A stretch of 62,567 nt of DNA, filler included, from 6 parts of 6 records of this genome joined end to end with filler, not necessarily neighbours in it, one strand, 5' to 3'; counted from the first letter of the whole stretch, positions 11,978 to 54,600 are shown. Program-made: numbers and translations. Notes: a model not told the origin generated them from the sequence alone.

Positions 11978-13159
11978 TTAAGTATTTAAAGTGGACTTCG
12001 GTTTTAACCACGGAAACGAAACAAGCAAAGCAGAAACGAAATAAATCAATCCGGCAACTCCAAAGGCTCTGCCTAAACTGACATGGTCTGTTATCCAGCC
12101 AAGTAAAGGCCCTATACCCGCAAAAGCTATGCGAATAATAAAATTACGCACCGATAACATGGTTGCCCTAACTTCACTATTGGTATATTGATTGATGTAA
12201 TTTTTTAAAATTGGAGTAGCTATGCCTCGCGTCAGGTAAAACATAAACAGAAATATAAATCCCCAGTAGGAGATATAAATTCCGGAGAGAAAGTAACCAG
12301 CTGACAACAATAAAATAACCGATAGAATCGACCAACGTTTGCCCAAAAACATTTCCACTTTGTATGCAAAAACTGATGAAACACCAACGGTTAAATTTAG
12401 GGCTGTCCAAAATATCCCATACATTTCGGTGGGCAGGCCAATGGCCACAAAAAAGGGTTGAACAAACCAGGCAAAAGTTAGCGTAGCTGTTCCACTAACT
12501 GCCGACAATAAAATGGCAATGCGCAAGTTGTGGTTAGTAATAAGTGTAGTTTTTATATTGTGAACCAGTTTTTTTATGGAATGTACATGTTCAGCAACCT
12601 GAATTTTAGGCTCAATCATAGTTAATGCGGCCGGAATGGCAATTGAAGCCACAACAAACTGAAAATAGAAGGGGGTACGAAAACTAATAACGGCCAGAAA
12701 ACCACCTAGTGTTCCTGCAATTGCCTCTGCAAAATTTCCTACCGAGGTTATCCGGCCTTCTTCACGAGTATATTTACTGGTTTTGTTATCTGCTTTAAGG
12801 CTGTCGTAAAGCATAGCCGAATCGGCACCTGAAACAAACGAATGGCCTATCCCAAGTATAATCTCAGCTACAACGAAAGCCCAAAATCCGTACGAAATAC
12901 TGTAGGTCATAAAACCTATGCTCCCCAAAATACTTCCCAGTATCAAGGTTTTTTTTCGTCCCCATACATCGGCCATCCATCCTGAAGGGATTTCCATAGC
13001 AACAATAGCCACAGAGTAAATAGATTTTAGTATAAATAGTTCGTAGGTCCCCATGCTGTTCGATTGGATAAATAACAACATTACAGGCATAACCATGTTA
13101 AACCACTTCGAAATTTTAATCAGGTATAATCGCGGAATATTTTTACTGAAGTTTGCCAT
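11978..13159 (-). CDS. MFS transporter
   Basis: EIPSGWMADVWGRKK (motif A), SGADSAMLYDSL, about 12 hydrophobic segments. Start moved to ATG 13159 because a TAnnTTTG element sits at 13171-13178 on the - strand. Confidence 0.88.
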   Translation of the reverse strand: MANFSKNIPRLYLIKISKWFNMVMPVMLLFIQSNSMGTYELFILKSIYSVAIVAMEIPSGWMADVWGRKKTLILGSILGSIGFMTYSISYGFWAFVVAEIILGIGHSFVSGADSAMLYDSLKADNKTSKYTREEGRITSVGNFAEAIAGTLGGFLAVISFRTPFYFQFVVASIAIPAALTMIEPKIQVAEHVHSIKKLVHNIKTTLITNHNLRIAILLSAVSGTATLTFAWFVQPFFVAIGLPTEMYGIFWTALNLTVGVSSVFAYKVEMFLGKRWSILSVILLLSAGYFLSGIYISYWGFIFLFMFYLTRGIATPILKNYINQYTNSEVRATMLSVRNFIIRIAFAGIGPLLGWITDHVSLGRAFGVAGLIYFVSALLVSFPWLKPKSTLNT

Positions 13160-13989: not shown

Positions 13990-14089
13990 NNNNNNNNNNN
14001 NNNNNNNNNNNNNNNNNNNNNNNNNNNNNNNNNTTAATTAATTAANNNNNNNNNNNNNNNNNNNNNNNNNNNNNNNNNNNNNNNNNNNN
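13990..14089. other. Artificial contig linker
   Basis: 100-nt N run with central TTAATTAATTAA (stops in all six frames). Confidence 0.97.
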
Positions 14090-14194
14090 CAGGGCAGGGT
14101 GAAATTCCCGACCGGCGGTGATAGTCCGCGAATCTGTAACAAGATTGAACTGGTGTGATTCCAGTACCGACAGTACAGTCTGGATGGGAGAAGA
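14090..14194 (+). ncRNA. FMN riboswitch (RFN element), 5' end clipped by the contig edge
   Basis: CAGGGCAGGGTGAAATTCCCGACCGGCGGT...AGTCCGCGA...GATTCCAGTACCGACAGT..AGTCTGGATGGGAGAAGA matches the RFN consensus and lies upstream of ribD. Confidence 0.97.
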
Positions 14195-14266
14195 AAAACA
14201 ATTGATCGATTTGATTAATTCATGCCAATGGAAAGATTTTTTTCTTTTGGTGAACCTATAATAAAT

Positions 14267-20782: not shown

Positions 20783-20882
20783 NNNNNNNNNNNNNNNNNN
20801 NNNNNNNNNNNNNNNNNNNNNNNNNNTTAATTAATTAANNNNNNNNNNNNNNNNNNNNNNNNNNNNNNNNNNNNNNNNNNNN
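20783..20882. other. Artificial contig linker
   Basis: N run with TTAATTAATTAA. Confidence 0.97.
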
Positions 20883-36400: not shown

Positions 36401-36687
36401 TGATCGCAGCATCTCCGGACGGTTCTCTTTTCGCTTCTGTTGGAAAAGAACTTATTCTCTGGGACGCAAAAACTTGTGAAAAGATCCAGGCGATCGACCT
36501 TCAATACACTGGTTACAGCATCGCATTTGAAAATGACGGAAAGCATTTTTCAGTAAGTGACGGAGCGGTGATAAAAAGATACCCTGTAATTCTTGAAATG
36601 TGGAAACAGGACCCTCTTGAACTTCTTGAAAAATATCAGAAAAAAGCCGGCAAAAAACTAGAAGGATTCAAACTTATTTCAGATTAA
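33436..36687 (+). CDS. Ser/Thr protein kinase with a hydrophobic helix and WD40 repeats
   Basis: GRGGIG, IALK, HRDLKPEN, DWGLA, GTPAYMPPEQ, then a hydrophobic segment and many GH...WD/WN repeats. Confidence 0.93.
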   Translation: MSIEKNKKIKDSSDISRTVSLDLSNLEIPERMLDSGIDDKDQWRYSIVDEIGRGGIGRVLVAFDGKLGRDIALKELIQTDNPGQNKIKPLDKLKANEVRFLREAKVTGQLEHPGIVPVYEIGKKPDGNHYYTMKLVRGMTLAQAIKDAGTLEKRLRLLPHFRDICNAIAYSHSRGVIHRDLKPENIMIGEFGETVVLDWGLAKVKGENDESDTTLQEELDVLKVENLGQTTRGKAIGTPAYMPPEQAEGDVEQIDERSDIYSLGAVLYEMLTGQPPFKGRNVSETLEMVLKNNPVDITILENDAPPDLCAVVSKTLTPEKADRYETALEVAWEIENFMSGGRIRAYEYSSWELFKRFTKKNKSLSSLLFIIIMLVLAGSATILFAYRQSVENERFAHLNLSRGYLEYAERLIEEKKYSNASIFSAAALYHNPYNPKSPWNYSESYLKSKRDELSNQMLPIQSALYLSTVHQNDSFVKNLVNFDFEARDSAISPDGDLIAIAGKNREVFIYSLNDGKIKKTLEGHTDNIVTMQFSHDGKFLISGGWDKTLRLWNVSEGVTIKSFSLPKCEIYAASFSPDGRYIAFGGTDNTLWTIDLSKKNKTVQKMFESMNTIRAIEWAPNGKMLLVSNSSGDITLVKDNKPVKVFKHHREPVIAVKFLKDNRYFISTGYDKKILLWDINQSKPRVLLKHWDAFFDLDISSDGTLAVAASRDGTIKLIDLKSFQVLNLRGHEGPVYSVSFLPMGNTIVSVGEDKLLKQWKTDINKSVFTFRGHTTYIPSMSYSPDGKLLASSSWDTSVKLWNVKNESLYSTFSNRETVAYSISFSPNGQFLAIGNNKGGLQLFNPLKGRIISEFKGHTDQISSVLFSNDGDLLVSGSKDKTVRIWDVKTRRPLKILNDHSTPIQSVKLSPDGKIIASGGRNGELNFWSFPEGKHIRKMRNSDKTILSLAFTNDSKYLLTALGNGTIKKWDTEKGIVKKTMTGHSGPINMIAASPDGSLFASVGKELILWDAKTCEKIQAIDLQYTGYSIAFENDGKHFSVSDGAVIKRYPVILEMWKQDPLELLEKYQKKAGKKLEGFKLISD

Positions 36688-39568: not shown

Positions 39569-39668
39569 NNNNNNNNNNNNNNNNNNNNNNNNNNNNNNNN
39601 NNNNNNNNNNNNTTAATTAATTAANNNNNNNNNNNNNNNNNNNNNNNNNNNNNNNNNNNNNNNNNNNN
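39569..39668. other. Artificial contig linker
   Basis: N run with TTAATTAATTAA. Confidence 0.97.
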
Positions 39669-40868
39669 ATCTTCATGGAAACCATATCTCCAATATGCTC
39701 CTGCATAATATGTATTGTTTTTCCCATTTATAAGCTCTCTTTTTTCTTGAGCTTTTATAGCTTTTAAATCAAATTGAGGGTGGGAATAGTTTATTTTTTC
39801 AATTACATTATCTAAAGATTGTGTTTCATTTAAAGAGACGAAATACTCTTTTTTCTTTTTTAGATTTTGTAATGTGTTTAACCAATAAGAAAGGGTTACA
39901 TTATCTTCTTTCCCATCTGTTTTATAATTCCAAGCTGCATAGGCTTTTTTATTTGGAAATAAAGCTTTTGTATCTGTATGTAAAACAGCATCATTATCTT
40001 TGTATTTAAAGCTCGAAAGAATATTCATTTCATCATTACTTGGGTCATCTAGCATTTCTAGTGCATCAGGTGCGTGCATAGCTAGAATAACTTTATCATA
40101 AATAGATTCACTTAAATCTTCATGTACTAAAATAACTTTGTCATTTTCTCTTTTTATACTTTTAACTGTAGAGTTAGTATATATTTTTCCAGAAATTTCT
40201 AAGGCAATTTTATTTACATAATTTATTGAACCACCACTTACAGTTAACCATTGGTGGTGAGTATCAACTCCTAATAAGCCATGATTTTTAAAGAAGTTTA
40301 AAAAAGCTCTTGCTGGGAACTCATTCATTTTTTTAGTTGGTGTTGACCAAATTGATGCTCCCATAGGAATAATATATCTATCTTTGAAGTAGTTTGAATA
40401 AGGTTTTAGATATTCACCTAGACTTAAGTCTAAATCTTCACTGTCATTTTTTAAATCTTCATTTGCTTTTTTATTGAATTTTAGAATATCTTTAATCATA
40501 ATATAGTGGCTTGGATTAAATAGGTTTTTCTTTTGAAAGAACATACCTTTTAAATCTTGCCCATTATAAGCCGTGTTTGATTTTGTATCCCAAAATGCAA
40601 AACTCATATCAGAGTTTTCAATTTTAACATTTAGTTCTCTGAAAAGTTTTGTTAGTAAAGGGTAGGTTTCATGGTTAAATACTAAAAAACCAGTATCTAC
40701 ACCAAACTCTTTATCATCTTCTTTTACAAAAGTAGTTCTAGCATGACCACCTAGTCTTGAACTTTTTTCATAAAGGTCAACATGATGTTTTCTACTTAAT
40801 AAATATGCAGAGCCTAATCCACTGATTCCAGCTCCTAATACTGCTATTTTTAATCTTTTATTTCTCAT
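39669..40868 (-). CDS. FAD/NAD(P)-binding oxidoreductase of cfa-associated clusters (3'-partial)
   Basis: GAGISG, RLGGHA, VDTGFLVFN..TYP, AAWNY, GAYWRYGFHED. Confidence 0.88.
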
Positions 40869-41404
40869 TTGTATTTTCCATTCTTATCTTGTTTTGTAAA
40901 TATTAATTTTGATGTGTCCATGTAATCTTTTAGAAATACAAGTAGTTTGTCTAGTTCTTGTTTTTCTATAAAAGGGTTTCTATGCATAATCCATAGGTTC
41001 TTCATAGATTCATCACTCATAATTGCAGTTTGATAAGATTTGTCTAAATAGATAATTCTATACTCTTTAGAAAAAATCCAATAATAGGTTTTATCAAGTT
41101 GTGCAAGGTTGTTTTTTAATAATGGTTCAACAACACCTGAATAAGAAATTAGTTTTCCATCAATTTCATATTCAAAACATCTATTAAAAACTTTTAATTT
41201 GTCGTTATTAATTGGTTTATATTCAACTGTAGCAGCTACACAGTTTTCTTCAAATTTATTGTAAGTTCTAGCTATTTCGTACCAAAGCCCAGCAAAACTT
41301 TTAGGACTGACGTATTCAACGGGCTTTGGTGCATTAAATTTAAAAGAAGTTTGAGACGCAGATAGTAGGGAAACTATACTTAGCATTAAAATTATTGATT
41401 TCAT
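40865..41404 (-). CDS. Bacterial lipocalin (Blc-like)
   Basis: Signal peptide, GLWYEIAR motif, LWIMHR. Confidence 0.88.
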   Translation of the reverse strand: MKSIILMLSIVSLLSASQTSFKFNAPKPVEYVSPKSFAGLWYEIARTYNKFEENCVAATVEYKPINNDKLKVFNRCFEYEIDGKLISYSGVVEPLLKNNLAQLDKTYYWIFSKEYRIIYLDKSYQTAIMSDESMKNLWIMHRNPFIEKQELDKLLVFLKDYMDTSKLIFTKQDKNGKYK

Positions 41405-41477
41405 ATCAAACTCCTTTCAATAGACATTTTATATGTTATTGAAGGATTTTTGTATAAAAAAAATGTCAGTTAATAAA

Positions 41478-42734
41478 TTATTGTTTATCTTCTTTATATT
41501 TATTGATAAAAAATACTGCAATAACTTTTAAAATAACAGGAGCTAAGCCATAAAGTAGGGCAAGTATTAAAATAGAGTTTTCATTTGGATTGATTTTGTC
41601 AAAATCAAAAAATCCTAAGATACCAAAAGATATAGCCACACTTAAAGCAAGTGATAGTTTTGTAATCATTGCCCATAATCCAAAAAGTAAACCAGAACAG
41701 TTACTTTTTATCTCTTCTGCTTTTTGAGTTAAATCAGAATGAATTGAAGTTGGAAAAGCCAAATCAGCTCCTAAAGAAAAGCCAGAAACAACACATATTA
41801 TTAAAAAAGGAATAAAACTATTTTCATCTAAAAATGGAACAAAAATAAAAGCACTAGAGGCTAAAATAATAGAGTAAATCCATACTCTTTTTTTACTGAT
41901 TTTTTTAGAAATAGCAGTCCACACAGGAAGCGCTAAAACCCCTGATAAAAAATATAATATCAATAGTAAACCACTTGAATCAGGTTTTCTTATTACAAAC
42001 TCTACAAAAAGCAAAAATAGTGTTGCTGGAATTGCATTTGCAAGGTTATTAAAAAAATATCCTACTTGAAGAGTTTTGATTTTCGGTAACTCTTTGTAAA
42101 TAGTCTTTAAATATGAGATCTTAAAATCTTCACTATCTTTTGTAGTAACTGTTTTTATCTTAAGTAATGAAACAATAGTAAAATAAGTAAAAAGTATAAG
42201 AAAAACAACAAATAGTAAATCTAAAACTTCTTTTGTATTATTTGAAATAGAGAATAAAAAAGGAAGAAGTAAAGCTATTAAAACACCAATAATTGTTCCT
42301 ATCTCTCGTACACTATTTAGCTTTGTTTTGAAGTGATAATTTGAAGTAATCTCTGCTGACCAAGTAAGATAGGGAATATTAACCATACTCCAAGCAATAT
42401 AAACTATAAATGAAAAGGTAAATAACCAAAGATTTGCATACTCTTCATTTGGGTTTATAAGTAAATAAAAACTAATAGTTAATAAAATAGCTCCAACTAG
42501 TACAAGAGGTTTTCTTGAGTTAAATATTTGTTTGCTTTTATCACTTAAATAACCTAAATAAGGGTCTAAAAAAACATCAAATAGTCTTGCTAAAAAAAGC
42601 GTACCACCTACAATAGCCATATCTATTCCAACATCTTTTGCATAAAATGTTGGCAAATAAATATACAATGGAAGTCCAAGTATTGCTAAAGGAACAGCAA
42701 GAAGACTATAGTAGGTTAAAGTTGCTTTAGTCAT
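41478..42734 (-). CDS. MFS transporter (GPH/MelB-like)
   Basis: ARLFDVFLDPYLGYLSD, about 12 TM segments. Confidence 0.88.
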   Translation of the reverse strand: MTKATLTYYSLLAVPLAILGLPLYIYLPTFYAKDVGIDMAIVGGTLFLARLFDVFLDPYLGYLSDKSKQIFNSRKPLVLVGAILLTISFYLLINPNEEYANLWLFTFSFIVYIAWSMVNIPYLTWSAEITSNYHFKTKLNSVREIGTIIGVLIALLLPFLFSISNNTKEVLDLLFVVFLILFTYFTIVSLLKIKTVTTKDSEDFKISYLKTIYKELPKIKTLQVGYFFNNLANAIPATLFLLFVEFVIRKPDSSGLLLILYFLSGVLALPVWTAISKKISKKRVWIYSIILASSAFIFVPFLDENSFIPFLIICVVSGFSLGADLAFPTSIHSDLTQKAEEIKSNCSGLLFGLWAMITKLSLALSVAISFGILGFFDFDKINPNENSILILALLYGLAPVILKVIAVFFINKYKEDKQ

Positions 42735-43146
42735 TTATTTTTCTTTTTATAAATTTTATAAGTAATGATACCACAGGTAGTTTTTCATATAGATTTGATG
42801 CTGCATCCCAAAAATCTTCATGTAAAATCACCTTATCATCTGAATTAAAAATAACTCTACTTACACCTTCAAAGCTTTGAATCTCTTTGTCTTTTTTAAA
42901 TCTAAAAGTAAAGGTCCACTTGATATATGCGATATTTCTATTTTCAACTATTTCATCAATTTTGAATTTTGGTTCATCTAGCTTTTTATACATATTTAAA
43001 AAGACTCTAAAAATATTTTGTAAACCTTTTACTTCATGGAAAGGGTCTTTAAATTTTGCATTCAAATCAAAATATTTTGCATACTCTTTTAATGGTGTGT
43101 CTTTATTGATAGACTCGAAAAATGAGCCATAGTTTTGAGCTTTCAT
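42727..43146 (-). CDS. NTF2/SnoaL-like protein
   Basis: FKDPFHEVKG, HEDFWDAA..LYEKLP. Confidence 0.85.
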   Translation of the reverse strand: MKAQNYGSFFESINKDTPLKEYAKYFDLNAKFKDPFHEVKGLQNIFRVFLNMYKKLDEPKFKIDEIVENRNIAYIKWTFTFRFKKDKEIQSFEGVSRVIFNSDDKVILHEDFWDAASNLYEKLPVVSLLIKFIKRKIND

Positions 43147-43907
43147 TTTAACATCCTTTTTGTAATTGCAAGGGAATACTTATATGGAATAAGACTCAAA
43201 AACTGTAGAAATAGTCTTAGTTTTGTAGGAAATCTTATCTCAAAGCGATTGTCTTTCGTAATACCTTTAAAAATCTCTTTAGCCGCAAAGTTTGCTTCCA
43301 TAAGTTGAGGCATTTCAAAGTTATTTTTGTTTGTAAGTCTAGTTTTTACAAAGCCATGATTTATAATTTGTAAATCAATATTCTCTTCTTTTAACTCTGG
43401 ATGAATTGATTGAGCAAGATTTAGTAAAGCAGTTTTAGGCGCAGAATACCCACCGCCTTTTGGAAGTCCAAAATATGTTGAAAGACTTAAATTCCAAACC
43501 CATTTACCACTTTTTTGTTTTAAAAAGTATTTTGAAATAGTTGTCATGATATTTATTGCACCTAAATAGTTTGTACTATTCATTTGTGCAAACTTATTAT
43601 AATCCCATGATTTCATATCCATAACTTCATAAGCTCCTGCATTATAAAACCAAATATCTAAGCCATCAAAGGCTTCCCAAGCCTCTTTTACTTTTGCTTG
43701 GACATTTTTAGTATCTTCTACATCAAAGTCTAATAAATAGATATTATCCTTATATGAACTTTTTAGTTTTAAAAGTTGTTCATTTTCTGATGCAGTTCTT
43801 GAACTAACTACCAATCTAAAGCCATTTTCTAAAACTATTTTTGCTAATTCTAGTCCTATACCACTACTTCCACCAACTAACCAGATTTTTTTGTTTGAAG
43901 TTTCCAT
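43143..43907 (-). CDS. SDR family oxidoreductase
   Basis: GGSSGIG, NAG, YSAPK, GFVKTRLT. Confidence 0.9.
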   Translation of the reverse strand: METSNKKIWLVGGSSGIGLELAKIVLENGFRLVVSSRTASENEQLLKLKSSYKDNIYLLDFDVEDTKNVQAKVKEAWEAFDGLDIWFYNAGAYEVMDMKSWDYNKFAQMNSTNYLGAINIMTTISKYFLKQKSGKWVWNLSLSTYFGLPKGGGYSAPKTALLNLAQSIHPELKEENIDLQIINHGFVKTRLTNKNNFEMPQLMEANFAAKEIFKGITKDNRFEIRFPTKLRLFLQFLSLIPYKYSLAITKRMLK

Positions 43908-44047
43908 GATAGACTCTTTTTATTTTATTATATATTTAATTAAGTAGTTTTAATAGGTTTATTTTGTCAAGATATAGGAAAAATATAGACTATTATTACC
44001 CTTAACTAGCCTATAAACTTTTTTGATGTATAATATATATACTATTT

Positions 44048-45352
44048 TTGGTTATTGAAGGACTTTTTTTGGCTTATATTAACGATATTTATTATAAAGA
44101 TCTATTTGAAAATGCCCATATGCCTATGTTTATTATTGACAATGGTTTGATTGTTGAGGCAAACGATGCAATGGCAAAGGTTTTCAAAGTCAATAAAAAA
44201 GAGGATATCTATAAACTTCATCCTTCTCAATTATCACCAAAAAATCAACCAGATGGTCAAAACTCTGAAAAAAAAGCAAATGAAATCTTTAATGAGTGTA
44301 TAAAGCAAGGTTTTACGCAGTTTGAATGGCTACATAAAGACTTAGAAGGTAAAGAGTTCTTGGTTGAAATTACTTTAAAAGCAGTAACTATTGACCACAG
44401 ACAAATGTTCTTTACAACTTTTAGAGATATCTCAAAAGAAAAAGAGTATGAAGAAAACTTACAAAAGAAAAATGAAAAATTAAAAAATAAAAATAAATAC
44501 TTTTCTGAAATAAATAAAATACTAAAAACTGACCATCAATGGGAACAATTAATTGATAAAATCTTTTTGCTAGAAGAGTTTAGAAAAGCATTAGATGAAA
44601 GTTCAATTGTTTCAAAAACAAATAAAAAGGGTATTATCACTTACGTAAATGATAACTTCTGTAAAATCTCAGGCTATAGCAGAGAAGAATTAATCGGGCA
44701 AAGTCATAATATTATTAGACATCCAAATACTAAAAAAGAGTTTTTTCAAACACTTTGGCGAAAAATTATGAATAAAGAGGTTTTCAAAGGTGTAATTGAA
44801 AACAGAAAGAAAAATGGGGATTCATATTTTGTTGATACAACTCTTGTTCCTATTTTAGATAAAAACGATGAAATTGTAGAGTTTATCGGTATTAGAAATG
44901 ATTTAACTGAAGTTTTTGAAAAAGATAAAGTTATTTATGAGCAGTTTACTGATGATTTAACTTCTTTACCAAACAGACAAAGACTATTAGATGATATAAA
45001 AAAGTTTGTAAAACCAAAACTTGCTTTAATCAATATTGATAGATTTAAAGATATTAATGATGCCTACGGTTTTGAAGTAGGAGACGAGATATTAAAAACT
45101 CTTTCAAAAAGATTAGTTAAACATAGATCAACTAACCTAAAAGTATATAGACTTTCTGGGGATGTTTTTGGATTATTAGCATATGGGAATATTTCAGAAG
45201 AAGAGTTATTAAGAACAACAGATCGTATTATTCATAATCCTTTAATTCAAAAGTATAAAATAGGGGAATATGAGTTTGATATTTCATATAGTGTTGGTTT
45301 AGCTGGACATGGTGATAAACTATTAACTCAAGCAGAAGTATCCCTACAATGG
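44048..45352 (+). CDS. PAS-PAS-GGDEF signalling protein (3'-partial; an EAL domain probably follows)
   Basis: Two PAS domains, DDLTSLPNR, degenerate SGDVF. Start may be TTG at 44069. Confidence 0.85.
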
Positions 45353-45452
45353 NNNNNNNNNNNNNNNNNNNNNNNNNNNNNNNNNNNNNNNNNNNNTTAA
45401 TTAATTAANNNNNNNNNNNNNNNNNNNNNNNNNNNNNNNNNNNNNNNNNNNN
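45353..45452. other. Artificial contig linker
   Basis: N run with TTAATTAATTAA. Confidence 0.97.
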
Positions 45453-45503: not shown

Positions 45504-45664
45504 GGGCATATGTTCATGAAATTCATTCTTAAATCGTATCAATATAGCAATGCTATCAAAAATGTTATCTAGAAACATGAATCATTTATTGTGAAGGATG
45601 ATACTGTATCACTCAGTATAAAAATACATATACTTTGCTTTAATAGAACAGGCAAGAAATAGAT

Positions 45665-45671
45665 GTTAAAT
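45665..45671 (+). other. First core site GTTAAAT (candidate attI R box)
   Basis: GTTAAATGG is the reverse complement of CCATTTAAC at 46381-46389. No attC hairpin was found upstream. Confidence 0.55.
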
Positions 45672-45686
45672 GGATTAAAATAAAAA

Positions 45687-46388
45687 ATGAAAGATAAATT
45701 GGATATTGAATATAAAATAGTAGACTTATCAGCTGAAATCCTTTCAAAAGAAATGAAAGGTATCTCAACACCTGAAAGAGAAAAATATTTTATTTTAACG
45801 TTCTTTCAACACATTAAAGAAATAAGAGAATCAAGAAGATCATTAGAAATTATAAAAATACTGTTGGAACTTTCACCCAAAAAGACAAAAAGAATTACAA
45901 AGCAAGAGTATCTTATATACCATATTAATAACTATTTACATGAGATTTATATCTTCAAATTAAGAGTTGATAATCTTGTAATATTTATTCAAAGAGCATA
46001 TAAATGTACAAAAATTAGAGAGAAAACTAATGATTTTAATAAAAAAATGTTAAAAGTCATAAACAATAGTTTTTATGATATCCTTAAAGAACGTGGATCA
46101 CATGTACATCAAAAACGTTATGATGACAAATATATAAACAATATGGAACTATATAGCATTATTGCCAATACATCAGATGAATTTAAAAAAGAGGCAGAGT
46201 TTGGTTACAATGCAACAAAATATAGATGGAAGAACTTATCAAAAAAGAACAATGATGAAATAGATAAACTCATTGAAATGATATATGAAAAATTAAGTTT
46301 ACTTATAATGAAAGATGAAGAAATAATTATACCATCAACAATTATAGATCATGAGAATAATAAGAAGAAAAAAAATGAAACCATTTAA
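45687..46388 (+). CDS. HEPN-domain protein (Cthe_2314-like), cassette 1
   Basis: YHINNYLHEIY..RVD and Rx4H motif RGSHVH. The stop codon lies inside R''. Confidence 0.7.
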   Translation: MKDKLDIEYKIVDLSAEILSKEMKGISTPEREKYFILTFFQHIKEIRESRRSLEIIKILLELSPKKTKRITKQEYLIYHINNYLHEIYIFKLRVDNLVIFIQRAYKCTKIREKTNDFNKKMLKVINNSFYDILKERGSHVHQKRYDDKYINNMELYSIIANTSDEFKKEAEFGYNATKYRWKNLSKKNNDEIDKLIEMIYEKLSLLIMKDEEIIIPSTIIDHENNKKKKNETI

Positions 46389-46492
46389 CAAACAATTGAA
46401 GCTGAATTACCTACTGTCATCGATCATTCTTTTCAGCTTCGCAGGCATGATCAACGCCAGCCAACGGTAATCAGATTAATTGGAAGTTATGC
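46383..46492 (+). repeat. attC site (110 bp)
   Basis: R'' ATTTAAC and R' GTTATGC. Arms CAATT(G)AAGCTGA(A)TTACC and GGTAATCAGATTAATTG pair with two unpaired bases; inner GATCAT/ATGATC. Confidence 0.85.
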
Positions 46493-46596
46493 AGCCCTAC
46501 GGGCAGAATTTCTAGGAGATTATTGAATAATAATTATTTGAACCAAAATAAAAATATTCTAAAATTATTCCAGAATATTATCAGAGAGTAAAAAAT

Positions 46597-47730
46597 ATGA
46601 ATGCAGTTAAGAAATTTAAGGAAATGATTAATCAATACTCATATAAAAATTTTGGTAGAGGAGAAGGTCCACTAACAAACATTACCTTCTTTTTTGGTGC
46701 TGGATTTTCAAAATCGTGGGATAAGGAGTATCCTCTTTGTGATGAGTTATTTTCATTTATACCCCATGATTACAGTTCTTGTTATGCTGTAAATACATTT
46801 TTAAATGATTGTGGGATAGATACGCATAAAACTATGACTCTTCAGGCTTTTTCAGAATCATACTACAAGCTGTTAATGATGGGAAAATATGATTTCTTAC
46901 AAGGTAGATATTATGATGATTTCAATATATCTGCAATCGATAGAGAGATTCGTTATATTATTTATTCAGAATTTACAAAAAAAATTGAATTGAACTTTTC
47001 CTATGATGGTTGTATAGCACATCCAACAATAACCGAGAGTCAGAAGGAAATTATAAATTTCTTTTATGAATTAATGGATCATTTAACGGGAGATTCGTTA
47101 TATCCAGAGGGTTTAAGATTAAATTATATTACAACAAATTATGATTTTATAATTGAAGGAATTATTGATACTATACTTCAACCAGACGATTTTCACTATA
47201 TTCATACTTATCGAGGCTTCACAGCCGATAAAATAAACGAATATGAAAATATTTCCTATTTGCATCAGGAAGATCTTGTTTATAGATTAATAAAACTCAA
47301 TGGAGGTTTTGAGATCTTTGAATCTGGTAATTTATATAATATTGACTATAGGAAAATTTCATTAAGTCAAATTAAGGAAAATCCCCCACTTCTCATTCTC
47401 CCTTCTAAAGAACAAAATTACGATAATAACTATTTCAATACTATATTCAAGAAAGCTGTTCGTTGCATGAATGAATCAACTGTTTTAGTTATTGTTGGAT
47501 ATGGTTTTTCAGAAGAAGATTCAGTAATTAGACTTTTATTAAATAATTTTGCTGAATCAAAAAGAGACGTAGCTAGTAAAAATCTATTTTATATTGATCT
47601 AGCAGAGAAAGAAATTATGCGAAGTAGAGTTCAGCAAGTATTTCCAAATAAGGAATATGTGAGATCTTTTGACTCATACTTTTCTGGTAGTTTTGCAAGC
47701 TTTTGTAGAGCATTTAATTCATTAAAATAG
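46597..47730 (+). CDS. SIR2-like domain protein, cassette 2
   Basis: FFFGAGFS, ITTNYD, IKLNGG, LILPS..K, VIVGYGFSEED. Confidence 0.82.
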   Translation: MNAVKKFKEMINQYSYKNFGRGEGPLTNITFFFGAGFSKSWDKEYPLCDELFSFIPHDYSSCYAVNTFLNDCGIDTHKTMTLQAFSESYYKLLMMGKYDFLQGRYYDDFNISAIDREIRYIIYSEFTKKIELNFSYDGCIAHPTITESQKEIINFFYELMDHLTGDSLYPEGLRLNYITTNYDFIIEGIIDTILQPDDFHYIHTYRGFTADKINEYENISYLHQEDLVYRLIKLNGGFEIFESGNLYNIDYRKISLSQIKENPPLLILPSKEQNYDNNYFNTIFKKAVRCMNESTVLVIVGYGFSEEDSVIRLLLNNFAESKRDVASKNLFYIDLAEKEIMRSRVQQVFPNKEYVRSFDSYFSGSFASFCRAFNSLK

Positions 47731-47744
47731 AAAAGGAGTATTGC

Positions 47745-47978
47745 TTGGATAAAAATAAATTACCTCAAGATATATCAAATATTCTTGCCTATGCAATAAG
47801 AGATTTGATTTGGTATAAAACAACATTACAGACTGTTCAGTATGTTCTTGAAGAACTTTCAAACAGGGGTACTTACACTCACTACGTTCGAACGCAAGTA
47901 CCCCGCCAAATTCTTCCGCTTTGCTTCAGGAACAAATCTGCTCGTTTAGTGGGCGTTATACGTTCAAAAGAAAAATAA
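47745..47978 (+). pseudogene. Short ORF, probably a truncated gene running into attC-like DNA
   Basis: Strong AAGGAG RBS and TTG start; the 3' half overlaps GC-richer hairpin sequence. Confidence 0.35.
47858..47961 (+). repeat. Rearranged or partial attC-like element
   Basis: R' GTTATAC at 47955-47961 and hairpin GGGGTACTT...AAGTACCCC (47866-47904). No left arm matches the right arm. Confidence 0.55.
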
Positions 47979-47986
47979 GGTGAAAA

Positions 47987-49249
47987 ATGGATATATTTGA
48001 TGTAATTGAAGAATGGGATTTAAACACTGATAATATAAACTTTCATAAATATTCTCGATCAAATATAAGGGATCTCGCACAGCAAATTAATAATCTATAT
48101 TCCAATAAAAGTGAATTCTCATTTGATCGCTATCATTTAGGTTTAAATGAATCTATTAGATTTATGGAAAATAAAGATGATAAAACATCAATAAACAATA
48201 ATCTAATATTTTCAGAACAAATGTGGTTACCAGATCCTTTATATTCAATGTTTTCAGACAATGCAAGTAAGGTTTGGATGAAGTTACCCGATAGTGGTTC
48301 AGATTATATAACAGAAAAGACAGGGATACATATCCAATGGAAAAGTTATTGGACTACTCCAATTAAAGATAGGATAGAATATTTAAACGAAACTTTTCCA
48401 ATTGTTTTAAGAAAAATTAATAATATTAAATTGTTGTGTAAAAGCAAGATAGTTTATTTAAAGCCATGGGAATTAATATTTAGCGACGAATTATTAAATA
48501 TCAAAAAAATACTCCCTCCATTACTAGAAAATACAGATATATTGAAACAAATTACAGAAAAATATGTTCAATCTCAATATAATTTAGGTCCAAGACTGGG
48601 TGCAATGGGGGTAACGCTTAGCCAAGATGATCCAATACATAATCTGAAAAAAGGAACAGATCTATGGATGGTTGATAAGAGTAATATAATAGTTTACGGA
48701 ATACTTAATACGATACTTACTGATAAACTTGGGTCAAACTTTATTTTGAAACTTCCAGGTGATAAGATTGTATATGAATTTATTAGAAGTGGTGGATATA
48801 TCAATTTAGAGGATCATTATTTTAATAGTAAAATCTATATTCCGAATTTAGATAATCTTTCATTTAATGATATTATTTCCATTAGAGAAGATTCAGAAAC
48901 TTTAGAAATCTTAAGAAAAACATTAACTAAAGCAAAAGAAATGAACAATTCATCTTCGATTGAAGTTATAAAAATGGAATTGCAAGAAATCTCAAGAAAG
49001 ATGAAGGAAGATCGCAACTTTCTAAAGATTAATAAAATAAATTTTAGAGAATTAGCTATTGGTGGGTTTATAGGATTCGCTTCAGGTGCCATTTCTGGCG
49101 GAACTTTACCTATCACAGCTGCTACAACATCATTAGGTGCAGGAACACCTTTCATAGTTAATCTTATAAATAATTCTTTTGGAGAAGAAAGTAAAAGAAG
49201 TAAAAAAAGAATTGATCTATTATTAAAGATAACAGACAAAATAAAATGA
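47987..49249 (+). CDS. Hypothetical protein with a C-terminal Gly/Ala-rich hydrophobic hairpin, cassette 3
   Basis: 420-aa ORF with an RBS, bounded by GTTATACGT and ACGTATAAC. Confidence 0.8.
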   Translation: MDIFDVIEEWDLNTDNINFHKYSRSNIRDLAQQINNLYSNKSEFSFDRYHLGLNESIRFMENKDDKTSINNNLIFSEQMWLPDPLYSMFSDNASKVWMKLPDSGSDYITEKTGIHIQWKSYWTTPIKDRIEYLNETFPIVLRKINNIKLLCKSKIVYLKPWELIFSDELLNIKKILPPLLENTDILKQITEKYVQSQYNLGPRLGAMGVTLSQDDPIHNLKKGTDLWMVDKSNIIVYGILNTILTDKLGSNFILKLPGDKIVYEFIRSGGYINLEDHYFNSKIYIPNLDNLSFNDIISIREDSETLEILRKTLTKAKEMNNSSSIEVIKMELQEISRKMKEDRNFLKINKINFRELAIGGFIGFASGAISGGTLPITAATTSLGAGTPFIVNLINNSFGEESKRSKKRIDLLLKITDKIK

Positions 49250-49250
49250 C

Positions 49251-49349
49251 GTATAACAAACCCATGCAGTAGTCATGTCTATTGTCACAGAATCTACTGA
49301 GCACATTCTGCGCCAATTAAACGACTTGTAACTGATAGGGATGTTATGC
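49251..49349 (+). repeat. attC site (99 bp)
   Basis: R'' GTATAAC and R' GTTATGC. AT(G)CAGT pairs with ACTGAT leaving one extra base; inner ATTG/CAAT and CAGAAT/ATTCTG stems. Confidence 0.85.
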
Positions 49350-49377
49350 AGACAGCCTTAGGCGCTAGGGAAATTAA

Positions 49378-50103
49378 ATGATATATGAATTACGTAATAA
49401 AATTCCACAAAACAGTAGTTATATTTACTCTGAAGATGTGTTAACAAGCACAATATTTGGTAATCTCAGATATTTTAGCTCAAATAAAATATTAGAAAGT
49501 TTCCTGACATTTGCAGTCAAACTGGATAATACAAGGTTTAATGTAAAATTACATAGCGACTTAAAGTTTCTCTTTTGGAAAAAATTATCCGGTAGAGATA
49601 GTCAAATAAATGAACCTGATTTGATACTAGAAGATAGTGAAACAGTAATAATAATTGAATGTAAATATCATTCCTCGCTTTCTGAGCAAAATTTATATAA
49701 TAAAATAGAATATACAAATCAATTAATACGATATTCAACAGTTTTTGATGACTACTATAAAAGCAAAAAAAGAAAAATTATTATTTATCTTACTCATGAA
49801 AGAAAACAACCAATAGACACGCTAAAAATTACAGCAGAAAAAGTATCAGATAATATTGAATTGTATTGGTTGTCATGGTTTTCTCTATATGATGCCTTAT
49901 CTGAAATTGATATTAAAAAATTAAACAAAGGTGAAAATGAATTATATAATGATTTATTAAGATTCCTTAGAAAACGGGGAATAATCACTTTTAATGGGTT
50001 TAAAAATAATCATAAAAGGCTAATGTGGAGATATGATAACGTAAGACATTATTCGTTTGATAAGAGGATTCACTTAATAAATAATAAATGGAGTTATTTA
50101 TGA
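49378..50103 (+). CDS. PD-(D/E)XK nuclease-like protein
   Basis: SEDVLTSTIFG, EPDLILED...IIIECKY, NQLIRY, IIIYLT, WLSW. Confidence 0.78.
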   Translation: MIYELRNKIPQNSSYIYSEDVLTSTIFGNLRYFSSNKILESFLTFAVKLDNTRFNVKLHSDLKFLFWKKLSGRDSQINEPDLILEDSETVIIIECKYHSSLSEQNLYNKIEYTNQLIRYSTVFDDYYKSKKRKIIIYLTHERKQPIDTLKITAEKVSDNIELYWLSWFSLYDALSEIDIKKLNKGENELYNDLLRFLRKRGIITFNGFKNNHKRLMWRYDNVRHYSFDKRIHLINNKWSYL

Positions 50104-50618
50104 ATACAATAAAAGAGATTGTTAATGATTATAATTCATTGATTTTAGATATAAGGAATTTGATTACAGATGTTTCTGGAATTATAGAGAGAGACAATAG
50201 AATTAGTTTTCAGTATGAAGGGTGGTTGCCACGAGATAGGCCTGCTTGGAGTTTGAAAAATACATACTCAAAATCATTCATTAATGGTGATTCCATTTTC
50301 TATTTAGGTATTGATTTGATAAGTGATAATCCTTATTTGTTATTATCGTATACATCTATATGCTTAGAAAATTGTAAGATAAACGAGTTTACTGAATATG
50401 ATGCTTATGCACATATCGAAAATCAGGAAATTCATAAAACAGAAGTAACAACGGGTATTTATTCATTTAAACAAGATTGGGGTGAATGTTTTTATTGTAA
50501 AATAAATCTTCTGGAAATTGTTAACAGAGAAGTTGTTAGTTCAGATATCAGTTCGATTATTGATTTTTTATTTACTCAAGAAGACAGTGTTAAATGTAAA
50601 TATATAAAATTCGTCTAA
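50100..50618 (+). CDS. Hypothetical protein translationally coupled to the nuclease
   Basis: ATGA overlap at 50100-50103 with a GGAG RBS. The stop lies inside GTCTAAC. Confidence 0.72.
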   Translation: MNTIKEIVNDYNSLILDIRNLITDVSGIIERDNRISFQYEGWLPRDRPAWSLKNTYSKSFINGDSIFYLGIDLISDNPYLLLSYTSICLENCKINEFTEYDAYAHIENQEIHKTEVTTGIYSFKQDWGECFYCKINLLEIVNREVVSSDISSIIDFLFTQEDSVKCKYIKFV

Positions 50619-50657
50619 CAATTAAAGAGTGAAATAGGTGGATTATTACACTATAAT
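50613..50657 (+). promoter_or_regulatory. Orphan R'' site followed by a sigma70-like promoter
   Basis: GTCTAAC at 50613-50619 with no hairpin; GTGAAA-17 nt-TATAAT at 50629-50657. Confidence 0.45.
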
Positions 50658-50689
50658 CAAAAGCTAATCATTTCGGAATGGTGATACTT

Positions 50690-51949
50690 ATGAATACTAG
50701 AGATACAGAAAAAATTGAAAATTGTTTTTACAAATTATATATAGCATTTATGGATAAGGTTGTCAAAGATCGATTTGATAAAAGTATTATTTTTGGAATT
50801 TCTGATGGACCAGTTATTGACTTTCAAGGATATACACATTCAAGGCTTTGTGAATTAGTAGATTTAAAGGAATATAAAGAATTATGTGCTCTAGTAAAAA
50901 AAATATTAGCTAAAGAAGTGCATCCATACTTTATTTTTGGGTATATGTTTTCCGATGTTTATATGAGTTTAAATCCGATATCACCTCAATATCGTATTGT
51001 GAATAATATTCCTAACATACAATCTTTTTGTAGAAATCCAGATATTTTGATGAATGCCTTAAGTACTGGATCAATGACTTTAGACATGAAAATTGATAAT
51101 TCATTTTTAATTGTTCTTCAGGGGGTAAAAATACAGAAGCAAATAAATATACCTGGAATAGGTGTGATTAAACCTTTAGGAAATGATTTGGATTTACTCA
51201 AAAATAATAGAATGTTTAAATTTGATTGGGGGCATGTTTATACTGGACTATATGTTAGTAATATAGATTACTTAGAAGACGATTATATCAAAGTACTACT
51301 TACAATATTCAGGTTGTTTAAAAAAGGTGATATCCGATATTTGAATAAGTATCAGAAAGTTGAAAACTACGCGACTGGATATAAGTATCTAAAATATAAG
51401 AACTCAAGTTCAAATAATGATTATTCGGAAGAATCTGCAAAACATAGGGGAGATGCACTTTCTCTATATAAGTTAGATCAAAAAGAATGTGATGATTTTA
51501 TTTATTTCTATAATGAAATGTTCAAACCTCTACAAAAAATGAAATATTCATGTGAATTTTTCAATAGAGCAGTCTTATCGCCTCATTATATTAAGGATTT
51601 GTTTTTATTTATTGTTATTGAATCATTCTTTTCAGATGTATCTATCGAAATTTCGTATAGAGTTTCTTTATATGTAACTAGGTTATTAAATGAAAATGTT
51701 GATTTTTTTAAATTATTCAAGGATTTGTATAATTTAAGAAGTAAACTTGCTCATGGTGATCCTGATAGTGCAAAAAAAATAAGGACAAGAATCTATAAAA
51801 ATCATGCTACTATCTTTAGGAAATACTCTGATGACAATCAAATCATTGAGGGTATTGTTAAGGCTTTATTTATTAATTTAGCAAGAATAAATTGGGACCC
51901 AAAGAAATCAGGTAGCACAATGAGGGATTTGCTGATAAATATTGAATAA
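50690..51949 (+). CDS. ApeA-like HEPN-domain protein
   Basis: C-terminal LFIVIESFF...EISYRVS...LYNLRSKLAHG (Rx4H). The ORF track start is 50678. Confidence 0.78.
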   Translation: MNTRDTEKIENCFYKLYIAFMDKVVKDRFDKSIIFGISDGPVIDFQGYTHSRLCELVDLKEYKELCALVKKILAKEVHPYFIFGYMFSDVYMSLNPISPQYRIVNNIPNIQSFCRNPDILMNALSTGSMTLDMKIDNSFLIVLQGVKIQKQINIPGIGVIKPLGNDLDLLKNNRMFKFDWGHVYTGLYVSNIDYLEDDYIKVLLTIFRLFKKGDIRYLNKYQKVENYATGYKYLKYKNSSSNNDYSEESAKHRGDALSLYKLDQKECDDFIYFYNEMFKPLQKMKYSCEFFNRAVLSPHYIKDLFLFIVIESFFSDVSIEISYRVSLYVTRLLNENVDFFKLFKDLYNLRSKLAHGDPDSAKKIRTRIYKNHATIFRKYSDDNQIIEGIVKALFINLARINWDPKKSGSTMRDLLINIE

Positions 51950-52048
51950 ACATAACAAACAGATACATCAGTTAGGCCTTCTATCAAGGATTTGAGTTCG
52001 CAATATCCGCACCAGCTTAACGGCCTGTAGATAAGCCGTGCGTTAATT
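51950..52048 (+). repeat. Degenerate attC site (99 bp)
   Basis: ACATAAC directly after the stop codon, GTTAATT, with AGGCC/GGCCT, ATC/GAT and GGAT/ATCC pairings. Confidence 0.65.
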
Positions 52049-52278
52049 CGATAAAGATAAAATTATGGTAAGAATGTATGTAATAAGATTGTACAAATTA
52101 TTGGATAAAAGATTTACTAATATTAGAGATTATTGAAATTGGAAATTATTTATATGATAGGCAAGTCAGGAAAAACGTTGTAATAAAACAAAACATGAAT
52201 ATGAGGTCATTCTAACAACTTTGAAATTAAATATAATTATTTTTTAATTTCAATAAAATAAATGTTAAAGGAGTATTT

Positions 52279-53031
52279 ATGGATAATAGACTAATAATTG
52301 CTATTTACTTCGACATAGAAAATATTAATCCAAAATTAGATATTAGTACATTACTAGATTCAATATCATTAAATATTGCAGAAGAAATGCAAGCTGTATT
52401 TGCTATAAAGCTAGCTTGTGGAAATGAAGAATCTATCAAAAAATTTATAAACAAACTAAGAGATCTGAATTTTGATATTAGAGTTGCACCACATGTATCA
52501 AGAAAGAACTTTAAGAATAGATCTGATCTAATCCTATCTCTCGAAGCCTTCGAAACTTTAGTGCACGAAAAACCAGAAATAGATTTATATGTATTTATTA
52601 CATCAGATACGGATTTTACAGTAATAATGGACAAACTGAGAAAATTTGGGAAAAGAGTGTGGTTAGTAACTAATGAAAGTACAAGTAATAATAAACTATT
52701 TTCAAATAGTTCGGATACAATACTAAAAATAGAAGATAATTTAGAAAAAGGCACAACAAACGAAAAAACAGATAATAAGACTAATTATAAAAATCTTGAT
52801 ACATTCAGTAAAGTATATATTGATGGTATAGTCAAAATTATTGACTCATTTGAAAAAGATAAATGGCATCCTTATTCAGCATTTGGAGTAAAAATGAAGA
52901 ACCTATACAAAGATTTCAGTTATAAAGGTCATAAGATTAATAGTCAAACAAAACTATTTAATGAATTAAAAAAACAAAATATGATAGAGATAAAAAAAAT
53001 AGATAAAATAGATCACTTTAGAGTATTATGA
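52279..53031 (+). CDS. NYN (LabA/DUF88, PIN-fold) domain protein with a probable C-terminal OST-HTH/LOTUS domain
   Basis: IYFDIEN, RSDL, TSDTDF..IMDKLRKFGKRV; AAGGAG RBS. Confidence 0.85.
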   Translation: MDNRLIIAIYFDIENINPKLDISTLLDSISLNIAEEMQAVFAIKLACGNEESIKKFINKLRDLNFDIRVAPHVSRKNFKNRSDLILSLEAFETLVHEKPEIDLYVFITSDTDFTVIMDKLRKFGKRVWLVTNESTSNNKLFSNSSDTILKIEDNLEKGTTNEKTDNKTNYKNLDTFSKVYIDGIVKIIDSFEKDKWHPYSAFGVKMKNLYKDFSYKGHKINSQTKLFNELKKQNMIEIKKIDKIDHFRVL

Positions 53032-53036
53032 TTGAG

Positions 53037-53151
53037 ATATAACATGCTTTTAGAACAGTCTGCTCTACTGTTAGACTATGTGTTTATTTGCTTCAAAGGC
53101 ATATAATCCGCTAGTTTACGAGTTTCAGTTGAAAGAAAAGCTATGTTTATG
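53037..53151 (+). repeat. Degenerate attC-like site (~115 bp)
   Basis: ATATAAC after the stop codon; AACAT-GCTTTT pairs with AAAAGC-T-ATGTT. Confidence 0.5.
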
Positions 53152-53436
53152 AGGAGATAGAATGAAGAAAAAAATGTTTTGGTTCATAAATATTTTTATT
53201 AAACATAAATCCATTAATTTAGTTTACATGTAGGAAACTAGTTTTATTACGTGTGAAATTGTGAGATTATGCTGTGGGTTATATATGATAGAAATTATTC
53301 AAAGTAAGCATGGAAAAAGATACAAAAAAAGACTTGAAAAAGTATATAAAGATAGAAGTCGATATTATCTAGTCAGTTTGAAGGATTAGATAGTATATAT
53401 GAGCAAGAACATTTTGGCCCAACTATAATTACTAAA

Positions 53437-54486
53437 GTGTCAGAGTTGCAAAAAATTGCAGAGGTAAATGGAAAAAAGTATTCTATTACTAACAAGAAAC
53501 TTTATTACTATGACATTAATTTAGAAGGTTTTAATGAAATAGAAATTCAGTTCAAAAACTGCATTCTCAAAGATTGTCGGTTAAGAAATGGTACTGCCGT
53601 TGTCAAAATTATATCAAACAATACTATTAATTCTATTAACTTTGAAAATGGGAGTTTTCAAATAGAGATAACGGGAAGTTTTGAAGTATTACAATTAAAT
53701 AATTGTAAAGCTACTCTTGATATGGACAGTGCATGTATTAAATATCTACAAATCCATAAAACTGAGATTAGTTTGTTCACAGCAAGGGGAATCGTAGAAA
53801 ATTTAAGATTAATCGATTCAGTATTAAATAGATTACTTCTTCAAGTTAATAAGTTATCAGAAATTGAGTTCTACCCAAAGAGTATAAAGGCTTCAAACTG
53901 TATTCAAAATAATGAGCTTAATTCACAGTATTATGAAACAATTAAAACATGTATTGAAATATGCAGAGTCCTTCAACAGAGATATGAAAAAAATGATAAA
54001 GACCAATGGTACTATTTTTTTATGCTTCAAAAAATACTAATGAACTACAAAATACCTGGTAGAAAGAGGGCAATTAATATATTTCTTAAGGAAAATGTAA
54101 AAGAATATGGATTGAAATTAAGTTTCTATAAAAGGAAAAGAGTTGCTGCTAAAAACTCTATATACCAGAAAAGTATTTTATTTGAAAAAATAGGTCATTA
54201 TTTTGTTAATCCAGATTTGATATTATTTGATATAATTAAAGTAATATTATTTTTTTCGGCAGTATATCTGTTTGTTGGCTTGGAACGAGATAATCAACTT
54301 GAGTTTTCATTGAAATTAATCATTTCAAATTTTACTGTAAAGTATGCTCTAATTAGTATATATAAATCAATTTATTTTAGTTTTACTACATTTTCTACAG
54401 TAGGCTATGGGGATTATAGAATACGTGATTTATTTGAAGTAATACCAATAATTGAAATGCTTTTAGGTGTATTTAGTGAAACTTAG
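53437..54486 (+). CDS. Protein with a beta-solenoid-like N-terminus and a two-TM potassium channel domain; both ends possibly damaged
   Basis: YFSFTTFSTVGYGD pore signature. GTG start without an RBS; the second TM helix ends abruptly near the contig end. Confidence 0.7.
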   Translation: MSELQKIAEVNGKKYSITNKKLYYYDINLEGFNEIEIQFKNCILKDCRLRNGTAVVKIISNNTINSINFENGSFQIEITGSFEVLQLNNCKATLDMDSACIKYLQIHKTEISLFTARGIVENLRLIDSVLNRLLLQVNKLSEIEFYPKSIKASNCIQNNELNSQYYETIKTCIEICRVLQQRYEKNDKDQWYYFFMLQKILMNYKIPGRKRAINIFLKENVKEYGLKLSFYKRKRVAAKNSIYQKSILFEKIGHYFVNPDLILFDIIKVILFFSAVYLFVGLERDNQLEFSLKLIISNFTVKYALISIYKSIYFSFTTFSTVGYGDYRIRDLFEVIPIIEMLLGVFSET

Positions 54487-54500
54487 AAACCCACCTCCTC

Positions 54501-54600
54501 NNNNNNNNNNNNNNNNNNNNNNNNNNNNNNNNNNNNNNNNNNNNTTAATTAATTAANNNNNNNNNNNNNNNNNNNNNNNNNNNNNNNNNNNNNNNNNNNN
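54501..54600. other. Artificial contig linker
   Basis: N run with TTAATTAATTAA. Confidence 0.97.

Follow-up and report, generated by a model that had tools for sequence, protein, structure and literature searches.

Integron cassettes end in attC sites, whose end boxes follow the consensus RYYYAAC (R'') at the 5' end and GTTRRRY (R') at the 3' end. The mechanism of integrons is summarised in the excerpts of PMC4889954 on which we draw. Excerpts of the same paper and of PMC9024848 define attC clusters that have no integron integrase (CALINs) and report that draft assemblies split integrons at similar attC sites. Integron cassettes have also been published as stores of defence genes, according to the accessible sections of bioRxiv 10.1101/2024.07.02.601719 and PMC12614218. 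Here we analyse a 9,048-bp contig (45453-54500, G+C 27.4%, a fraction of 0.274) in a stretch of DNA of 62,567 nt, called the window throughout. We read this contig, with a probability of roughly 85%, as a piece of an integron cassette array. Four of its cassettes end in attC sites of one family, and that family builds arrays elsewhere too.

The window contains five copies of the linker N44-TTAATTAATTAA-N44, against 0.04 expected by chance, and is six unrelated contigs joined end to end; gene order across a linker can carry no argument. The array contig is complete. Since linkers bound it on both sides, the other contigs of the window are not physically linked to it. Both of its ends are assembly breaks, and no open reading frame (ORF) runs off its left edge. 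A leftward extension past 45453, as proposed earlier, meets a linker within this window. Nine ORFs of at least 77 amino acids (aa) fill it, all on the + strand, as a preliminary description of this DNA had noted. Six cassettes lie in a row on it in the same orientation (Table 1).

The four hairpins that could be modelled, those of cassettes 1, 3, 4 and 5, close with AAC...GTT, and each follows a stop codon. Imperfect palindromes of 50 to 150 nt with RYYYAAC...GTTRRRY ends were found with the box pairs ATTTAAC...GTTATGC, GTATAAC...GTTATGC and ACATAAC...GTTAATT. The preliminary description had placed hairpins of 99 to 115 bp at or near stop codons and called their inner sequences different from each other. 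The four modelled hairpins are 99-110 nt long and 0-5 nt from the stop; the structure after the SIR2 gene is 147 nt long, branched and 84 nt away. The inner sequences differ, yet they are homologous, and in the two best sites common letters extend past the end boxes. The exact 9-nt complementary ends it reported are present as given: GTTAAATGG at 45665 is complemented at 46381, and GTTATACGT at 47955 is complemented at 49249.

Folding was assessed by scanning every AAC...GTT pair 45 to 150 nt apart on both strands of the whole window, 4,256 candidates, 671 of which folded as single hairpins. The site of cassette 3 (49251-49349) ranked first, at -16.3 kcal on the bottom strand and -10.7 kcal on the top, and that of cassette 1 (46383-46492) ranked third, at -12.5 and -9.6 kcal; the hairpin ranked second (36260-36367) is not an attC site and lies inside a WD40 gene. 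The bottom-strand folding proposed earlier as a check thus came out in favour of attC sites, with the - strand the stabler at both places; this strand carries the G-T pairs and folds best. Both sites also have the extrahelical base expected of attC, and a bulged base at nt 16 of the 5' arm recurs in the window sites, in sites from metagenomes and in sites adjacent to integrases. The same scan on 408 kb of control sequence surrounding prfC genes yielded 17 sites at or below -12.5 kcal, five of them with a strand bias of at least 2 kcal, or about 0.1 expected per 9 kb. The hairpins exceed chance. An ungapped inverted-repeat search missed the sites.

Rfam has no attC family and gave no meaningful match in the contig, so reference models were built. 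TIGR02249 integron integrases scored above the cut-off in 113 of 401 sampled genomes of the phylum of G003, Bacteroidota (G006-G405). The flanks of 30 TIGR02249-positive genes were fetched (loci including L119-L158), and the hairpin scan found arrays there, some of them large. The first covariance model, R1, was made from 22 attC sites beside such integrases in seven genomes and recovered 309 sites at E <= 0.1 in the 755 kb of integrase flanks. In an AT-rich genome (29% G+C), at L132 (G390:C1:3331172-3351171), R1 matched unusually long sites of about 220 nt, which lie on the 3' side of intI in the same orientation as the gene and not in the usual divergent layout.

For the second model, metagenome contigs were searched with a pattern made from the letters common to the two best window sites, which returned 29 loci. 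Twenty-seven of these fold as textbook sites, with a 7-bp R box, a 2-nt spacer, five pairs and the bulged base at position 16; the other two resemble chance matches and did not recur in the later searches. The bottom strand is the stabler in 28 of the 29. Model R2 was built from eleven metagenome sites, with the window sites kept out of the training set. In the consensus of these eleven, compensatory changes occur at 19 of the 36 pairs, and 94.7% of cells pair; no shuffle out of 500 reached any of five measures, slid controls paired at 32-43%, and conserved G-U pairs occur on the bottom strand only.

Run on the whole window with filters off, R2 matched the four modelled hairpins, all on the same strand and 0-5 nt after a stop codon (Table 1), and the next, unrelated match scored 13.2 bits (E 1.2). 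No match was found in the 408 kb of control DNA. By our count of the NC marks in the R2 alignment, the two nearly intact sites have standard pairs at 34 of 36 positions (cassette 1) and 33 of 36 (cassette 3); about 7 of 36 pairs are non-standard in the site of cassette 4, which folds poorly on its own, and about 11 of 36 in that of cassette 5. The earlier proposal of an integron-type cassette array is supported by three attC sites at E <= 8.4e-10 and a fourth at E 0.026, with shared R''/R' boxes, an extrahelical base at position 16 and a stabler bottom strand.

Table 1. Coordinates of the features discussed (bits and E are for matches to model R2)
Feature	Position	Strand	R2 match	Remarks
R'-like box GTTAAAT	45665..45671	+		9-nt complement to R'' 46381-46389; inferred crossover G|TT opening cassette 1
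attC of cassette 1	46383..46492 (110 nt)	- (folding strand)	65.7 bits, E 5e-14	R'' ATTTAAC overlapping stop; R' GTTATGC
Putative attC of cassette 2	47815..47961 (147 nt)	-		branched imperfect palindrome ending GTTATAC; starts 84 nt after SIR2 stop
attC of cassette 3	49251..49349 (99 nt)	-	78.4 bits, E 2.9e-17	R'' GTATAAC, 1 nt after stop; R' GTTATGC
attC of cassette 4, eroded stem	51950..52048 (99 nt)	-	49.2 bits, E 8.4e-10	R'' ACATAAC directly after stop; R' GTTAATT
Degenerate attC of cassette 5, borderline	53037..53146 (110 nt)	-	19.8 bits, E 0.026	5 nt after stop; R' degenerate
Cassettes 1 to 6	45666-46486; 46487-47955; 47956-49343; 49344-52042; 52043-53140; 53141-contig end			six in a row, co-oriented
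ORF1 (233 aa)	45687..46388	+		all-helical; motif RGSHVH
ORF2 (377 aa)	46597..47730	+		stand-alone SIR2_2-family protein
77-aa TTG ORF	47745-47978	+		overlaps 47815-47961; no family match
ORF4 (420 aa)	47987..49249	+		Gly/Ala-rich, weakly hydrophobic C-terminal segment, about residues 357-397
ORF5 (241 aa)	49378..50103	+		PD-(D/E)XK-type nuclease; motif PD...ECK, residues 80-96
ORF6 (176 aa)	50088..50618	+		overlaps ORF5 by 16 nt
ORF7 (423 aa)	50678..51949	+		N-terminal alpha/beta part and C-terminal helical domain
ORF8 (250 aa)	52279..53031	+		NYN-domain (PIN-like) nuclease; C-terminal 100 aa unassigned; 230 nt of non-coding DNA before it
ORF9 (349 aa)	53437..54486	+		K+-channel signature TVGYGD, residues 321-326; stop 14 nt from contig end
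Linkers N44-TTAATTAATTAA-N44	13990-14089, 20783-20882, 39569-39668, 45353-45452, 54501-54600			

Several results weigh against this reading. R1 scored only 10.0 bits (E 3) at the site of cassette 3 and 8.7 bits (E 6.4) at that of cassette 4, although both matches have exactly the predicted ends; it missed the site of cassette 1, and its best window match lies elsewhere, at 12685-12791. The training sites of R2 were fetched with a pattern from two window sites, and about one fifth of the model positions were pre-fixed for those two; the site of cassette 4 shares part of the pattern and that of cassette 5 none of it. The structure after the SIR2 gene was matched by neither model. The 9-nt complementarity is not significant by itself: five GTT 9-mers have their reverse complement 0.3-3 kb downstream, dinucleotide shuffles average 3.2 such cases, and 115 of 500 shuffles reached five. 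No integrase was found in any window ORF of at least 110 aa, tblastn with 30 proteins of IntI loci gave no match in the window, and no attI or Pc promoter was identified there. Finally, no relatives of any cassette were found in another context.

Position gives the 9-nt pairs their meaning, and only position does: one partner lies at the hairpin R'' and the other just upstream of the same ORF. The attC status of 47815-47961 is putative and rests on its fold (-14.5 to -16.8 kcal, with the bottom strand stabler than the top) and on the match of its R' at 47955, which is the 9-nt complement of the R'' of cassette 3. Upstream of the R'-like box that opens cassette 1, in the element at 45540-45664, neither R1 nor R2 found a match. 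This element cannot be aligned with the structure that follows SIR2, and neither of the two has relatives among the fetched loci.

The site family was examined further in the metagenome loci. R2 identified 45 distinct sites in the 27 loci, 14 of which carry two or three sites each, invariably co-oriented and 0.3-1.6 kb apart, and ORFs on the same strand end between 5 nt inside and about 60 nt before the sites. In the 29 loci R1 scored 26 sites at E <= 0.01, the best at 3e-6; of these, 23 are sites of the family, with the same ends and strand as given by R2, and three are other types on the same contigs. On the 755 kb of Bacteroidota integrase flanks R2 gave just two weak cross-matches. It cross-matches a site 580 nt from the intI of genome G041 (L126). 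A consensus-like site had no match in plasmids, and a literature search by motif returned no description of the family.

These observations bear on the view that the hairpins have nothing to do with site-specific recombination and are instead ordinary structured repeats between genes, or transcription terminators, within a defence island. Their position at the 3' ends of genes would fit, as would the fact that no recombinase is seen. Against it stand ends conserved as AAC/GTT, a bulged base and G-U pairs confined to the bottom strand, together with the arrays of one ORF per repeat with unrelated genes and recognition by R1; in addition, no terminator-like site and no T tract were found in the array contig. 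We consider this explanation very improbable.

A second alternative keeps the cassettes and replaces the integrase, with a non-classical integron-like system, using a Xer-type recombinase or carried by a phage, in place of an IntI integron. It draws on the Bacteroidota-like look of the neighbouring contigs and on two genomes whose TIGR02249 matches are split around model positions 180-239 and fall below the cut-off. The genes concerned (G003:C38:4876-5676 and G005:C3:458930-459739) are tyrosine recombinases with open frames of 464-557 aa and a two-piece TIGR02249 match with a gap at 180-239. In the window sites, however, both the R''/R' boxes and the place of the extrahelical base are classical, and R1, which derives from sites beside above-cut-off TIGR02249 integrases, recognises the family. 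Moreover, the site pattern was found in none of the 401 genomes from the phylum that the neighbouring contigs resemble. A non-classical system is therefore improbable, though less so than repeats or terminators.

In the mechanism we propose for a classical array, an integron integrase would bind the folded bottom strand, as established integron biology leads us to infer, would cut between G and TT of R', and would excise a cassette as a circle for reinsertion at attI. Judged from their sequence, cassettes 1 and 3 look recombination-competent because their hairpins are intact and their ends are fully complementary over 9 nt. The sites of cassettes 4 and 5 are eroded, and these two cassettes probably no longer move. 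A complete integron, with intI, attI and Pc beside the array, is not present in the window, and the contig ends 212 nt to the left of the first crossover point. The integrase and attI would lie outside the contig; the likeliest reason is that the assembly was interrupted at repeated attC sites.

Since the searches turned up neither an integrase nor an attI, and no mark of mobility, the locus is formally a CALIN, or else a split integron. Two or more attC sites matched by R2 lie within 4 kb with no integrase nearby, for the contig and the window alike. The array could be a CALIN in the strict sense, a decayed remnant without integrase whose cassettes are immobile and now form a fixed defence island. 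Erosion affects two of the four modelled sites, where about 7 and 11 of 36 pairs are non-standard, the structure that follows SIR2 fits neither model and the window has no intI, all of which would suit such decay; CALINs are also common and have been proposed to be degraded integrons (PMC4889954 and PMC9024848, in excerpt). On the other hand, two sites are nearly intact, and the contig ends are assembly breaks; drafts inflate CALIN counts (PMC9024848, in excerpt). We therefore regard strict decay as a doubtful alternative, well short of an even chance, and retain the piece of an integron array as the preferred reading.

Contigs of a sequencing run, X1, were compared with the contig ends. One Logan contig has a right end identical to that of the array contig, and short variant unitigs were seen at the left end. 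X1 contigs aligned to the stretch showed no joints and no differing letters, a result that is uninformative on excision, as these are possibly the source sample's own contigs. The run comprises 1.5 million Logan contigs, and the record may represent a mixed-origin metagenome bin. Positions 45623-45661 recur in a 2,847-bp contig of equal depth, which points to a repeat.

The gene content of the array is a mix of likely anti-phage effectors (a SIR2-like protein, and a PD-(D/E)XK protein with two partners, one of which has a HEPN-like motif) and genes with no assigned role. The preliminary description had called the cargo almost entirely anti-phage, which overstated the case: strong PADLOC matches were obtained for two of the nine ORFs, ORF2 (SIR2, 8.4e-12) and ORF5 (PDC-M15A, 1.8e-12). 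Its suggestion of a PADLOC search was fruitful to this extent, but the match of the NYN protein was weak (1.9e-4) and no complete known or candidate defence system emerged, all matches being to single proteins. At E <= 0.1 PADLOC had no match for ORF1, the 77-aa ORF, ORF4, ORF6, ORF7 or ORF9. The SIR2 and NYN assignments made earlier lie above the Pfam gathering cut-offs, and that of the PD-(D/E)XK nuclease agrees with both the PDC-M15A match and the motif.

ORF2 matches Pfam SIR2_2 (PF13289) at 27.3 bits, with a gathering cut-off of 24.5. It has 179 homologues at E <= 1e-5, several of them named 'SIR2 family protein' by their source, and most of those listed carry PF13289. The family is widespread and includes proteins of Xanthomonas campestris and Vibrio parahaemolyticus; no relatives of ORF2 were found in the genome contigs. 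GAGFS, TNYD and KxNGG are invariant in it, the last in 14 of 14 sequences, with Asn at the place where ThsA-type SIR2 proteins presumably have a catalytic His (KxHG). ORF2 is likely an NAD-consuming effector. A sequence search of the PDB returned nothing for ORF2 or for ORF5.

No site separates ORF5, ORF6 and ORF7, and the three genes therefore share one cassette of 2.7 kb. Besides its PADLOC match, ORF5 has a Pfam Hjc match at 0.002, below the cut-off, and the sole family match of ORF6 is to PHROG 37406 at 0.005. Two HEPN proteins had been proposed for the contig; their R-x4-H motif is indeed conserved, but neither ORF1 nor ORF7 has a HEPN family match in Pfam, NCBIfam or PADLOC, and structural similarity is weak (Z 5.1-5.4, ORF7). 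ORF7 has 48 representatives at E <= 1e-3. In its R354-x4-H359 motif the Arg is invariant and the His almost invariant. Its AlphaFold2 (AF2) model has a predicted local distance difference test (pLDDT) score of 88, and VIA aligned residues 290-403 with 9fcv_A (Z 5.4), 1wwp_B (5.1) and 1ylm_B (4.2), chains which we take to bear HEPN domains; these scores are weak and within the noise range. Foldseek of the model against the PDB gave nothing at E <= 0.001. The ORF7 family has five weak partial matches in the 401 genomes and none in the metagenome contigs, and in the metagenome loci tblastn aligned ORF7 with a cassette of L179 over 61 aa, the one match obtained. We treat ORF7 as a candidate HEPN-type RNase.

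ORF1 has two homologues in 5.8 billion clusters, and R136 and H141, which delimit its RGSHVH motif (residues 136-141), are invariant among them. It has no family match, and its AF2 model is unusable (pLDDT 49); like ORF7 it is a candidate HEPN-type RNase, unproven. ORF4 had no significant family match, and its Atlas neighbours are hypothetical proteins or clusters. ORF8 matches Pfam NYN (PF01936) at 2.2e-15 and 57.8 bits, with a cut-off of 24.2. ORF9 is a membrane protein with matches to Pfam Ion_trans_2 (4.8e-8) and PHROG 15350 (7e-9) and a hydrophobic segment at residues 255-285. An exact look-up of ten window proteins in a collection of 15 billion proteins found none, and tblastn of the cassette proteins against the fetched integrase loci found no relatives.

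In the metagenome loci, 14 of 51 ORFs of at least 150 aa on the attC top strand matched PADLOC at E <= 1e-8, so that the earlier statement that cassette arrays are reservoirs of defence genes fits the site family. The matches include a retron-type reverse transcriptase, bSEFIR (twice), HerA, NsnA/PD-T4-2, an Avs2-like domain, HNH, a type II methylase and the candidates PDC-S05, PDC-S07 and PDC-S31; Pfam adds HEPN_RiboL-PSP, GmrSD_N, DUF4238 and YaaC. The cassette pool served by the family is defence-rich. In these loci, tblastn with the 30 proteins of IntI loci gave a HerA-like match and nothing else.

Among the metagenome cassettes, L187:369-1870 is a two-gene cassette encoding a GmrSD_N/NsnA-like protein and a RiboL-PSP HEPN protein. 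In L177 a HerA gene is followed by a 158-aa ORF ending 15 nt before a site. A beta-lactamase-family (PF00144) ORF (L181:2022-3188) and an APH-family fragment (L190:2767-3270) both lie beside sites of the same family.

The other contigs of the window have ordinary genes. Four of them, at 35-41% G+C, carry a polysaccharide cluster, a rib operon behind a flavin mononucleotide (FMN) riboswitch, PrfC and others, and the genes of a second contig of low G+C (39669-45352, 27.8%) are likewise ordinary. PrfC from one of these contigs has its best identities, 64-70%, with Bacteroidota genomes, and the neighbouring contigs, unlinked to the array, look Bacteroidota-like. The FMN riboswitch (14081-14199, 100.6 bits) stands at the extreme start of a contig and is followed by ribD, ribE, ribBA and ribH. 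At 33436-36687 a protein of 1,083 aa combines a Ser/Thr kinase domain with a long WD40 propeller region.

Two practical points follow from the array. The family-specific model R2 recovers attC arrays from metagenomes, and several cassettes, such as that of ORF1, are nearly without relatives and cheap to test for phage protection. A bolder combination, that the sites are an undescribed lineage of attC resembling the Vibrio cholerae repeat (VCR) with a pool specialised in defence and that at least one uncharacterised cassette here is a new defence system, is put forward tentatively, and we would sooner bet against it than on it. Under that reading the candidate systems would be ORF1, which is rare, the Gly-rich-tailed ORF4, and the block of PD-(D/E)XK nuclease, ORF6 and R-x4-H protein ORF7. 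Integron arrays are already known stores of defence genes, and this array therefore does not change the picture.

Compared with described defence proteins, ORF5 matches PDC-M15A of the PADLOC candidate PDC-M15, with no partner model matching ORF6 or ORF7, and ORF2 matches the generic SIR2 models of single-gene SIR2 defence proteins. As for the integrons, the extrahelical base at position 16 of the top strand is G here and in 26 of 27 metagenome sites, unlike class 1 aadA sites, where we take it to be C. The array differs from sedentary chromosomal integrons in that its contig has 27% G+C with no intI or attI in view, and the CALIN label may simply reflect a contig of 9 kb. The chromosomal integrons of Bacteroidota, with attC families of 90 to 225 nt, share a 7-8-bp R box, the bulge at position 16 and a second bulge, and R1 recognises both their sites and the metagenome family; their sites belong to another sequence family, however, and no cassette protein is held in common. 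Like the V. cholerae superintegron, the array has cassettes of one or a few genes, all in one orientation, and each closes with an imperfect palindrome of 99-115 nt from one homologous family. Its cargo is rich in defence genes, which agrees with what PMC12614218 and bioRxiv 10.1101/2024.07.02.601719 report for integrons. Whereas the inner two-thirds of the window sites are unlike VCR, their R''-spacer start ATAACAAAC and bottom-strand end GTTTGTTAT are as in VCR oligonucleotides printed in the excerpts of PMC2095811.

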